From Candidatus Heimdallarchaeota archaeon (GTDB taxonomy: Archaea; Asgardarchaeota; Heimdallarchaeia; Heimdallarchaeales; Heimdallarchaeaceae), in contig JAAFKJ010000040.1 of the NCBI GenBank assembly GCA_021399395.1, positions 1 to 18,423 on the forward strand: DNA of 18,423 nt, read 5' to 3'. The position numbers were made by a program, and so were the translations under genes. The notes beneath the pieces were generated by a model. That model worked only from the letters and a program-made list of their open reading frames with translations. It was not told where the DNA came from and searched no databases. Positions within the stretch are counted from its first letter, which is position 1. Each line of letters starts with the position of its first letter. Shown piece by piece: positions 4,530 to 7,089 of this stretch.

Positions 4530-5603
4530 ATGAGTCAGATTATAATTAAAAGCCCAAACCCAGATGTTATTTGGAATTCATGGAAGCAAAAAGCTTCAAG
4601 AAGAAATATCAAACTTGAAAAACACTACAAAACTAAAGGGGCGGTGTTCTCTTTAGATAACATTACAGCTGCTGAATATGTGAAAGCTGTAAACAAAGCA
4701 GTAATTGTGTTTTATGAAGAAATATACGAAGCGAAACCATCCTCAACCAACAAAGTAATCAAAAAAGGGAATGTGAGATCTCTTCAAAAAGAACAATTCT
4801 ACGAATTCAAAACGGTAGCTGTGAAATCAGAATGGAAAGGTCCTGAAGATGTCTCCTATTTGAATTCTATTCAACAGTACAGTTGTACAACTTGTAATGG
4901 TTCAGGTGCAATCACCTGCTCGAAATGTAATGGTAGAAAAATGATTACGTGCTCGAATTGTAAAGGTACAACTGTTGGTTGTAAAACCTGTAAATCAACA
5001 GGTAAAACCACCATTAAGATTTCTGTCATTGATCAACAGAACAACAAGATGAACGTTGAGCAGACAGTTCCTTGTCCTTCTTGTTCTGGTTCAAAGCGAA
5101 TAGAATGTTATAAGTGCGGTGGTGTAGGGAAGGTCCCATGTGATTCCTGTCAAGCAGAAGGTTCGAAGCGATGCAAAGATTGTAGCGGTCATGGGGTCTT
5201 ATTCAAGTGGGTTGTTCAACCAGTTCCTTTCAAAGCAGAACGAAATGCTACTCCTGTTATTCTATCCACTACCAAACTCTCTGGATTTGAAAAAGAGATG
5301 GGTGCAGAAATTCAAAATGCAATAGAGAGAGTTGAAGGGATCGCACTCAGAGATCCATACAATGAATTGAATCAACGATTTATTGAACCTAGTTTGGGTT
5401 ATTATTCTAAAGAAGTAGATAAGATTGTTCACGAAACTCAAAAAAGCTGGAGAAATGCAGAGAAGAATAAGGATTATACAGTTAAAAAACCAGTTTATCT
5501 CTTCCCTCTAATAGTATTAGATTGTGAAACTGCTAAGGGAAAGAAATTTCAAGTATTTTCTATAGGTTCAGAAAGAGGATATCTGGTGTTTGGTAAGATT
5601 TAG
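4530..5603 (+). CDS. SSUH2-like protein with eight DnaJ-type CxxCxGxG zinc-binding repeats (no J-domain)
   Basis: CxxC motifs CTTC, CSKC, CSNC, CKTC, CPSC, CYKC, CDSC, CKDC. No HPD J-domain. C-terminus VYLFPLIVLDCETAKGKKFQVFSIGSERG resembles the SSUH2 C-terminus as I recall it. Confidence 0.7.
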   Translation: MSQIIIKSPNPDVIWNSWKQKASRRNIKLEKHYKTKGAVFSLDNITAAEYVKAVNKAVIVFYEEIYEAKPSSTNKVIKKGNVRSLQKEQFYEFKTVAVKSEWKGPEDVSYLNSIQQYSCTTCNGSGAITCSKCNGRKMITCSNCKGTTVGCKTCKSTGKTTIKISVIDQQNNKMNVEQTVPCPSCSGSKRIECYKCGGVGKVPCDSCQAEGSKRCKDCSGHGVLFKWVVQPVPFKAERNATPVILSTTKLSGFEKEMGAEIQNAIERVEGIALRDPYNELNQRFIEPSLGYYSKEVDKIVHETQKSWRNAEKNKDYTVKKPVYLFPLIVLDCETAKGKKFQVFSIGSERGYLVFGKI

Positions 5604-6169: not shown

Positions 6170-6303
6170 CTAATTGTATTCGTCTTCGTCAAATTCTTCA
6201 TAGGAATCTTCATCGTCTTCGTCGTCATCCCATTTTTCTTTGAACCAATTGTCTTCTTCATCGACTGGTTGTTTCTTATTTCTAGATTTGCATTTACAGC
6301 CAT
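6170..6303 (-). CDS. Small highly acidic peptide (...KSRNKKQPVDEEDNWFKEKWDDDEDDEDSYEEFDEDEYN); start uncertain
   Basis: Strongly protein-like D/E/W/F/Y composition ending in TAG at 6170. There is no nearby in-frame start: ATG 6303 is in another open frame (6142-6303), and the nearest in-frame TTG (6362) lies in promoter-like DNA. Confidence 0.4.
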
Positions 6304-6393
6304 TTTTGCTGATTTTGAGAAAATCTAAAAAAATGGTATATAATGAAATGTTTAAATTCAAATTGATAGATAAATGATTGCTGGCGGAAAGTA

Positions 6394-7089
6394 GTGAAAA
6401 TAAAACTGAGACCACCTAATGAATGGGGTTATTATCTTAACCCAGAAACATTCGAAATTAGAGAGACAATAGGAGATATTCCTAACAATGTTTTAGTAGT
6501 AATTCGAAAAAAAGAATATAGAGCAGAAATAAGTAGATCAGTTTTTAGAACCTTTTATGCAACAATTTCCAATAATATGTTAGTATACCTCTCGAAAAAA
6601 GACACTGCTAAGAAACTTACTAAGCTTTGTGTTCAATTTATGCTTGAAAAGGGAGAAATTCCTCCTAGGGTAATTATTGATCAAAAAAGGATTGAAAATA
6701 AGCCTTTTGAGCTTATTTTTCATTTCAGAACATTTGCGACCTTTCCATTGAAATTCTCTGATAACATATTTGAAGATGAAGAACAAAAAGAACATATTAC
6801 AACTCTTATTAATAGTATCAAAACTGATTTTATCAAATCTAGAGAAGATAATTCTTGGTATATTGAATATGCACCAAATGGAAGAACTCTTTGTAAAAAG
6901 TGTAAGAAACAAATTAAATACAAGGAAATGAGAATTACTGAAATCTTTAGTAAGATAGAGCAGAAGGATCAACGGTTCTATCATTTCAAGTGTACAGACT
7001 GGTCCAAACTTACTTCAAACCTTGTTAAAGGAATAGATAAATTGACTGAAGACGATCAAAATCAAGTAAAAAAGAAACTCAAGCATTAA
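6394..7089 (+). CDS. Protein with an unknown N-terminal domain and a C-terminal PARP-type zinc finger
   Basis: YIEYAPNGRTLCKKCKKQI...MRI...FYHFKC...KGIDKLTEDDQNQVKKKL gives C-x2-C-x26-H-x2-C plus the trailing helix typical of zf-PARP. Confidence 0.82.
   Translation: MKIKLRPPNEWGYYLNPETFEIRETIGDIPNNVLVVIRKKEYRAEISRSVFRTFYATISNNMLVYLSKKDTAKKLTKLCVQFMLEKGEIPPRVIIDQKRIENKPFELIFHFRTFATFPLKFSDNIFEDEEQKEHITTLINSIKTDFIKSREDNSWYIEYAPNGRTLCKKCKKQIKYKEMRITEIFSKIEQKDQRFYHFKCTDWSKLTSNLVKGIDKLTEDDQNQVKKKLKH

Follow-up and report, generated by a model that had tools for sequence, protein, structure and literature searches.

The window analysed here, a stretch of 18,423 nucleotides from an Asgard archaeon (contig JAAFKJ010000040.1, Candidatus Heimdallarchaeota archaeon), contains a gene whose product joins a zinc finger of the zf-PARP type to an N-terminal domain (hereafter N-domain) that we have seen so far solely in Asgard archaea. 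The gene corresponds to an open reading frame (ORF) of 231 codons plus the stop codon, which extends over 6394-7089 on the + strand in the ORF list and begins with GTG. It is almost certain that the C-terminal 77 residues belong to the zf-PARP family. Judged from its sequence, the protein is non-enzymatic, being neither a PARP enzyme nor a ligase III. In eukaryotes, the zinc fingers of PARP1 belong to the factors that respond first to DNA breaks, and we consider it fairly probable that the finger of the window binds such breaks, the N-domain serving as an adaptor and the whole protein having no enzymatic activity.

The zf-PARP finger

The zf-PARP profile of Pfam (PF00645) matched residues 158-229 of the protein over its full length (profile positions 1-87 of 87), with 47.7 bits and an E value of 2.6e-12; the curated cut-off of this family is 39.3 bits. 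The same profile matched none of 14 well-known control genomes, and because it is silent there the match in the window is far beyond chance. The initial annotation, made from the DNA letters alone, had recognised a finger of the PARP1/ligase III type, and this assignment was confirmed by the scan of the ORF. The C-terminal translation it had quoted, SWYIEYAPNGRTLCKKCKKQIKYKEMRITEIFSKIEQKDQRFYHFKCTDWSKLTSNLVKGIDKLTEDDQNQVKKKLKH, is also correct, with W155 beginning at base 6856.

When compared by BLASTP with a mammalian PARP1 (P0137), residues 152-227 aligned with PARP1 residues 6-87 (33% identity, E 1e-8), that is, with Zn1, while a further alignment was obtained with Zn2 (E 4e-5). A profile built from 23 members of the family was then compared with solved chains: all the 15 distinct sequences found at E<=1 were fingers of PARP1 or of DNA ligase III (best E 3.3e-23), and the matched part was confined to profile positions 146-230. 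The AlphaFold2 model of the whole protein, which had a mean predicted local distance difference test score (pLDDT) of 83.1 and a predicted template modelling score (pTM) of 0.60, was matched by Foldseek to PARP1 Zn1 with E 1.4e-5. In VIA-align, the predicted model aligned with 3od8_A (Zn1) with Z 12.9 and a root-mean-square deviation (rmsd) of 2.4 over 81 aligned residues. Only 7 chains out of 48,161 reached Z>=8, every one of them a PARP1 or Lig3 finger. The likeness to PARP1 Zn1 that the initial annotation had pointed out is therefore borne out by profile, ligands, fold and grip arginine, and the Zn1 sequence it gave agrees with the PARP1 sequence in the HMMER alignment.

The finger of the window has the motif C-x2-C-x26-H-x2-C, with 26 residues between C170 and H197. 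Cys167 and Cys170 are invariant in all 23 family members and in 25 of 25 Asgard fingers taken from several architectures; His197 is invariant in the 23 family members and Cys200 is kept in 22 of them, both being invariant in the 25 Asgard fingers. In the numbering of the alignment of these 25 fingers, the invariant positions are C15, C18, I22, R28, H45 and C48; at least 90% of the fingers also have R12. Among the non-ligand residues, Arg180 is the counterpart of PARP1 Arg34, a DNA-contacting residue, and it is invariant in all 25 Asgard fingers. The phosphate-grip arginine expected from the initial annotation is present as R164, in register with PARP1 R18 in the BLASTP alignment, and its column contains Arg in at least 90% of the Asgard fingers; the C-terminal helix of the PARP1-type finger was found as well. 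Excerpts of PMC8150716 describe R18 and R122 of PARP1 as the grip on the phosphate backbone that is key to DNA binding. According to the predicted model, then, the window finger is a finger with CCHC ligands, a fold like that of PARP1 Zn1, and an arginine at the grip position.

No domain expected of an enzyme accompanies the finger. The ADP-ribosyltransferase domain (PF00644) and the WGR domain gave no Pfam match in the window protein, and neither did the adenylation domain of ATP-dependent ligases (PF01068). WGR also had no match in the host genome, which is 81.8% complete. PF00644 had none there either, a negative that is uninformative since this profile was silent in every control genome too. 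The ATP-dependent ligase of the host genome is a separate gene, found as a 591-aa frame on contig C23.

The N-terminal domain and the protein family

When the N-domain was folded alone, using 25 diverse homologues, the resulting AlphaFold2 model had pLDDT 87.0 and pTM 0.78. Its predicted strands (residues 10-15, 22-24, 34-43, 48-59 and 62-66, then 93-95, 107-112 and 115-119) and helices (a long one at 68-86, and 129-140) follow one another in the order five strands, helix, three strands, helix. In the full-length model, pLDDT fell below 50 in the linker (residues 144-151), and the pTM of 0.60 was lower than that of the isolated N-domain (0.78). The low linker pLDDT indicates that N-domain and finger are probably independent of each other.

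The initial annotation had not recognised the first 150 residues or so, nor had it seen any PARP or ligase catalytic motif in them, and the database searches agree with this in addition to the negative results for PF00644 and PF01068. No Pfam family reached its cut-off over residues 1-144; NCBIfam had no family for the window protein, for its paralogue, or for the relatives P0026 and P0037; and in the comparison of the family profile with solved chains the N-domain had no sequence match to any of them. Structure searches on the N-domain matched no known fold either. In VIA-align, none of the 48,161 chains reached Z>=5 with the N-domain model, the best match being 3n5b_B (PipX; Z 4.4, rmsd 3.6, 76 aligned residues), where the usual background is 7-8. 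Foldseek found no matches at E<=1e-3 in the PDB and likewise none in BFVD, and no usable match came from the ESM Atlas. The confident predicted fold of the N-domain thus appears to have no solved counterpart, although a weak or absent match is no proof that a fold is new.

A double repeat resembling PUR or Whirly proteins was also considered, as suggested by the order of the secondary-structure elements and by a match of the whole protein to 3nm7 (Z 3.7). It was rejected, because the match to 3nm7 did not recur with the N-domain alone and hhalign gave a probability of 0.2% for the alignment of the two halves of the domain, in which no internal repeat was found.

Over an alignment of 77 rows, the N-domain conserves W11, I15, K38, Y55, K68, L75, Y82, P90, K100, N102, Y109, P111, Y114, D115, F117, L119 and L138. 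Aromatic residues and lysines are thus retained in the domain, together with a single Asp and a single Asn.

An exhaustive search of 1.84 billion cluster representatives with the N-domain profile returned 103 representatives at E<=1e-3, of which 59 at E<=1e-10, compared with only six proteins found by a word-index search with the whole protein as query. A Pfam scan was made of 65 of these 103 relatives, the longer or weaker ones, leaving out 38 that were mostly top matches of 130-243 aa. A zf-PARP finger was found C-terminal to the N-domain in 23 of the 65 (20 above the cut-off, longer forms of 411-581 aa included). In three others a SWIM zinc finger takes the place of zf-PARP, which speaks for module swapping, and four combine the N-domain with WD40, LRR, ankyrin or TPR repeats. 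One more had a weak match to RFX5_N, and 34 matched no Pfam family. P0051 showed an additional RPA_C match, which adds to the nucleic-acid context of the Asgard fingers. Two full N-domains precede a single finger in P0026, P0028, P0034 and P0051, while the second match in P0046 is partial. All the named members of the N-domain family are from Asgard archaea (Promethearchaeota, Hodarchaeales), and one relative carries the automatic label 'PARP-type zinc finger-containing protein' in the database.

Plant ZDP and ligase III have the finger fused to a catalytic domain, and the domain order of the window protein, in which an unrecognised domain is combined with a targeting finger, resembles that of such fusions. 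By analogy, the N-domain might be an enzyme of a new kind, with DNA ends or some substrate related to damage as its target, and the finger would bring it to breaks. The conservation of D115, N102 and three lysines over the 77 rows would agree with this, and the fact that the N-domain matches no known fold leaves room for it. We nevertheless regard a catalytic N-domain as quite improbable, considering that the conserved positions include no His, Cys, Ser or Glu constellation, that neither a Pfam/NCBIfam match nor an enzyme fold at Z>=5 was obtained, and that the domain is fused to WD40, LRR, ankyrin and TPR scaffolds, which is typical of interaction modules.

Distribution was assessed in a sample of 301 incomplete genomes of the phylum, so that the lack of a match in a genome is not to be read as absence. 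Of these genomes, 94 contained a match to the zf-PARP profile and 73 one to the N-domain profile. In family f1, each profile was found in 21 of 28 genomes; in f11, each was found in 40 of 76, and these were the same 40 genomes. The finger profile exceeded the N-domain profile in f3 (9/11 against 3/11), f4 (3/3 against 0/3) and f5 (19/21 against 0/21), and the reverse was true of f14 (0/68 against 3/68) and f27 (0/7 against 5/7), while neither profile was found in the 19 genomes of f17. The statement of the initial annotation that zf-PARP is only sporadic in prokaryotes therefore does not describe the Asgard archaea, where the finger occurs in 94/301 sampled genomes and is near-universal in f5, f3 and f1.

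The two-domain form is present in a second Asgard lineage, f11. Within the genus of the host, full-length homologues were found in 19 of the 24 other genomes, none of them with internal stops. With its frame intact across two Asgard lineages, the finger gene is a real gene under constraint. The tree of the full-length family in the genus resolved three clades, A (7 rows), B (12) and C (4), with values of 98-99 in the Shimodaira-Hasegawa-like approximate likelihood ratio test (SH-aLRT). The window gene falls in clade A, where it has the longest terminal branch (0.57). A second copy in the host genome, located on contig C69 and 31% identical, belongs to clade B and has an acidic N-domain. The median isoelectric point (pI) of the N-domain is 5.5, and the domain is acidic in most family members; pI is about 5 in clade B and in f11, and 9.0-9.8 in clades A and C. 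The window copy is thus a divergent paralogue, with a basic N-domain and finger, a long branch and, like the rest of its clade, never an ATG start; the main copy is that of clade B.

Asgard lineages without the N-domain have other enzyme-free zf-PARP architectures (loci L070-L077, carried by L071 in G250, L073/L077 in G026 and G030, L072/L076 in G134 and G220, L074 in G027, L075 in G291 and L070 in G109). These include tandem-finger proteins, about 263 aa long and bearing Hodarchaeales names; proteins of 316-372 aa in which an oligonucleotide/oligosaccharide-binding (OB) fold like that of single-stranded DNA-binding protein (SSB) lies between two fingers (PF21473 at 50.7 bits in P0110); and proteins of about 200-218 aa in which some 110 residues follow the finger on its C-terminal side, their sole match being one of OB type below the threshold. 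Further forms are 167 aa long, or 619 aa long with an N-terminal finger only.

Proposed function and genomic setting

From the conserved DNA-contact residues, a stand-alone DNA break sensor can reasonably be inferred. The finger would bind discontinuities in DNA (nicks, ends and single/double-strand junctions) without sequence specificity, as the fingers of PARP1 and ligase III do, and would be joined by the flexible linker to the N-domain of about 145 residues. The N-domain would serve as an adaptor, pairing with that of a second copy and so bringing two fingers to one break, in the manner of Zn1 and Zn2, which in PARP1 act together at a break according to an excerpt of PMC8150716; alternatively, it would recruit another protein to the marked break. 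An adaptor or oligomerization role of the N-domain is the most likely one because the domain is mostly acidic, occurs in tandem forms, is encoded by itself in nearby genes, and is fused to repeat scaffolds. ORFs encoding only the N-domain lie near the genes for N-domain and finger in three f11 genomes of one genus (G242, G240 and G258), and in the two other than G242 such an ORF is 1.7-2 kb from the full-length gene; together with the tandem N-domains, they are a hint of N-domain pairing. In addition, sister fingers are fused to an OB fold of the SSB type, as would suit a protein that acts at single/double-strand junctions.

It should be noted that several observations weigh against this reading. 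The base-stacking loop of the window finger is two residues shorter than that of PARP1 Zn1. Ile188 stands at the position of PARP1 F44 in the BLASTP alignment, in a column occupied by E, D or Q in the relatives, and hydrophobic residues do occur elsewhere in the loop of the relatives, without positional conservation. Excerpts of PMC8150716 name F44 (Zn1) and L161/I164 (Zn2) as base-stacking residues with a modest contribution, and state that D45 is needed only for the inter-domain activation of PARP1. One clade-B copy (L019, G005:C26) has a Tyr at the fourth zinc ligand, in the Cys200 column, in a protein that is otherwise intact, which may reflect a sequencing error or a three-ligand finger. 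Since the N-domain is basic in clade A (pI 9.2-9.8) and acidic in clade B, its role may differ between the paralogues. Finally, the gene neighbourhoods of the window locus, of clade B and of f11 give no link to repair, no repair gene being a conserved neighbour in the 21 genus loci or in the 12 f11 loci compared.

The window copy is strongly basic, with a charge of +4 on the N-domain and +9 on the finger. This, as well as the lack of a repair-gene neighbourhood at the compared loci, would suit a general or structure-specific binder of DNA or chromatin, such as a nucleoid-associated factor or a transcription regulator, whose finger has no special role at breaks. PARP1 itself, according to the abstract of PMC6135609, is in addition a binder of DNA that is not damaged and has an architectural role in chromatin. 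However, what the Asgard fingers keep invariant is the set of zinc ligands, along with the arginines by which PARP1 contacts the backbone at a DNA end, the sister fusions with SSB-like OB folds point to single/double-strand junctions and not to intact duplex, and the N-domain is acidic in most members. For these reasons a general role of this kind appears rather unlikely to us, and break binding remains the reading that we prefer.

The neighbourhoods do contain some genes that hint at stress. In clade B, the finger gene lies after a gene for 160-190 aa that is read from the same strand and resembles rubrerythrin only weakly (20 bits, cut-off 22.8), and before a convergent gene for an AMP-binding enzyme; this arrangement was observed in 10 of the 21 genus loci compared, all 10 of them clade-B loci. 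The 12 f11 loci have nothing consistent in common, and their sole recurrent neighbour is a PAS histidine kinase (5/12). In one f11 genome (L068; G242:C338, 514-2247, - strand), the gene for N-domain and finger, an Hsp20 gene (45.5 bits) and a gene for the N-domain only are arranged head to tail. If the finger bound RNA or another ligand, and the protein took part in RNA metabolism or in a stress response, the Hsp20 and rubrerythrin-like genes would find a place, though as hints of stress and not of RNA binding. We give this explanation hardly any credence, because all the solved relatives of the finger are binders of DNA breaks and the stress neighbours are either weak or limited to a single locus.

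The host is a metagenome-assembled Asgard genome (2.8-Mb assembly in 201 contigs, completeness 81.8%, contamination 2.6%), of which the window is contig C128. Among the contigs that carry homologues from genomes of the same genus, several are 120-220 kb long, which shows that the finger gene is resident in the genome and is not a stray contaminant. The archaeal origin assumed in the initial annotation is also correct: the contig belongs to the Asgard group, and genus-mates, including AB_125, carry Heimdallarchaeota titles. The stretch is present in six DNA datasets from two studies of cold-seep or sediment metagenomes, and none of the datasets listed as carrying it is of RNA.

The start of the window gene shares several features with those of its clade. 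All seven clade-A genes have near-cognate starts (GTG in the window, CTG in three genes and TTG in three) and none has ATG, while ATG stands at the aligned start position in 14 of 15 clade-B rows and in all 4 clade-C rows. The frame of L004 and of L007 is interrupted by a TGA two codons upstream, so that no start other than CTG would preserve the conserved N-terminus. Aligned upstream of their starts, the seven genes have a mean column identity of 75% and are conserved over 70 nt, which include a motif resembling a B recognition element (BRE) and TATA box, presumably acting as the promoter, and a GGTGA-like sequence, GGCGGA in the window, which would serve as the Shine-Dalgarno sequence (Table 1). 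The near-cognate starts and the conserved 70 nt with BRE/TATA-like and GGTGA-like motifs suggest that translation of the clade-A paralogue may be deliberately weak or regulated.

Other genes of the window near the finger gene encode a DUF498 protein, an SPFH protein, an OMP-decarboxylase-like protein, an M55 peptidase and an ABC transporter. An ORF of 81 codons with a very acidic C-terminus (6170-6415, - strand) extends over the first 22 bases of the finger gene; Pfam gave nothing for it, none of the other compared loci has a counterpart, and it is probably not a gene. A 357-aa protein encoded at 4530-5603 (+ strand) contains a run of CxxCxGxG-type cysteine repeats. The protein resembles the DnaJ central domain (23.1 bits, cut-off 32.7) and the BSD2 cysteine-rich domain, in both cases below the threshold, and no J domain was found in it. 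Rfam gave no matches across the window.

Table 1. Position of the finger gene, its upstream motifs, the parts and key residues of its product, and the second copy in the host genome.
Feature	Position	Strand	Basis or counterpart
BRE/TATA-like motif, about 40 nt upstream of the start	6345..6357	+	Upstream alignment of 7 clade-A genes
Shine-Dalgarno-like GGCGGA, 6 nt before GTG	6383..6388	+	GGTGA in orthologues
Whole gene, clade-A paralogue of the N-domain + zf-PARP family	6394..7089	+	ORF list; homologues; three-clade tree
N-terminal alpha/beta domain, residues 1-144	6394..6825	+	AlphaFold2 model of the domain alone
Linker, residues 145-152, predicted flexible	6826..6849	+	Full-length model
zf-PARP zinc finger, residues 153-229 (Pfam part 6865-7080)	6850..7080	+	Pfam, fold and PDB profile matches
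Arg164, counterpart of the PARP1 Arg18 grip	6883..6885	+	BLASTP register
First zinc knuckle, Cys167 (6892-6894) and Cys170 (6901-6903)	6892..6903	+	PARP1 C21, C24
Arg180, counterpart of PARP1 Arg34	6931..6933	+	BLASTP register; invariant in 25/25 Asgard fingers
Second zinc knuckle, His197 (6982-6984) and Cys200 (6991-6993)	6982..6993	+	PARP1 H53, C56
Clade-B paralogue of the host genome	G000:C69:16205-16894 (= L001:1492-2202)	-	

Origin of the finger and comparison with known proteins

The phylogeny of the finger was studied with a quick tree of 67 fingers and with a more careful one (61 rows, 85 columns, root unknown), from which six long-branch rows had been dropped (L072d2, L070, both P0174 fingers and both P0169 fingers). 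In both trees, the eukaryotic sample consisted of PARP1 fingers only, from seven sequences. In the quick tree, 13 of the 14 eukaryotic PARP1 fingers formed one clade (SH-aLRT 95), placed among the fingers of the N-domain family with supports of 86-89. In the careful tree, all 14 were on one side of a branch that had a support of 9/39. Monophyly of the N-domain-family fingers was not rejected by the approximately unbiased (AU) test (p 0.436). With a eukaryotic sample limited to PARP1 and an unknown root, the finger tree neither supports nor excludes an Asgard origin.

These results bear on the proposal of the initial annotation that the protein is a eukaryotic signature protein (ESP). The occurrence of the finger in 94 of 301 Asgard genomes and in none of the 14 control prokaryotes speaks in favour of it, while its presence in Kofleriaceae bacteria speaks against it, and the order of eukaryotic and Asgard fingers cannot be taken from the tree. 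One could go further, and suppose that the finger of PARP1 and ligase III arose in Asgard archaea as a diversified, enzyme-free set of sensors plus adaptors in three architectures, namely the finger with the N-domain, the finger with an SSB-like OB fold, and fingers in tandem, with the N-domain as a new fold recruiting the response machinery. We regard this scenario as doubtful; if it were true, a primitive layer of DNA-damage signalling would be older than poly(ADP-ribosyl)ation.

We found no paper linking zf-PARP to Asgard archaea, in a search that did not extend to the supplementary ESP tables of papers on Asgard genomics, which might list the domain. In the preprint PMC13734099, the term 'PARP' occurs 0 times, and an excerpt of a 2014 survey (PMC4245714) reports no detectable PARP homologues in archaeal genomes. 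That some of the relatives are PARP-type zinc finger proteins is already known, in that database pipelines label them so. The finger itself adds one more member to a known family; what is new is its combination with a domain that has not been recognised before, and the wide range of Asgard finger proteins that have no enzyme. A sensor module without an enzyme is common in several Asgard lineages, with varied partner domains, and these proteins could offer a simple and tractable system for the study of break sensing before ADP-ribose signalling. The N-domain adds to this an uncharacterised family of about 100 cluster representatives, with a confident predicted fold that has no solved counterpart.

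The other Asgard finger proteins resemble the window protein in being small and non-catalytic and in having the same invariant ligands and arginines. They differ from it in that their finger is N-terminal and the N-domain is missing (0/21 in f5, 0/3 in f4). In bacteria, tandem zf-PARP proteins of about 188 aa are encoded by high-G+C DNA, in clusters whose members are named Kofleriaceae bacterium and Myxococcota. Like the window protein, the Kofleriaceae proteins are prokaryotic and non-catalytic, with no enzyme domain; unlike it, they have two fingers, no N-domain and a high G+C content, and in the domain tree the second of their fingers group apart in a clade of their own.

As to the eukaryotic proteins, the Zn1 and Zn2 fingers of PARP1 (3OD8, 3ODC, 4AV1, 2N8A) have their CCHC ligands in the same register as the window finger and share the fold of its model (Z 12.9 to Zn1, 11.5 to Zn2). 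The grip arginine (Arg18/Arg122) and the C-terminal helix are common to both as well. The window protein, however, has one finger instead of two, and lacks Zn3, BRCT, WGR and the catalytic domain of PARP1. The loop between the knuckles has 28 residues in PARP1 and 26 in the window finger, the difference being equal to the shortening of the base-stacking loop, and where PARP1 has Trp51 in its WYH motif, the window copy has Phe. DNA ligase III (1UW0) is similar in another respect, because it too has a single zf-PARP finger per polypeptide, accompanied by a second domain. Its finger matches the window finger model with Z 8.6 and rmsd 2.3 over 80 aligned residues, and the family profile with E 7.9e-9. 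The finger of ligase III is N-terminal, in contrast to that of the window protein, which is C-terminal and is joined to the N-domain with no ligase domain.

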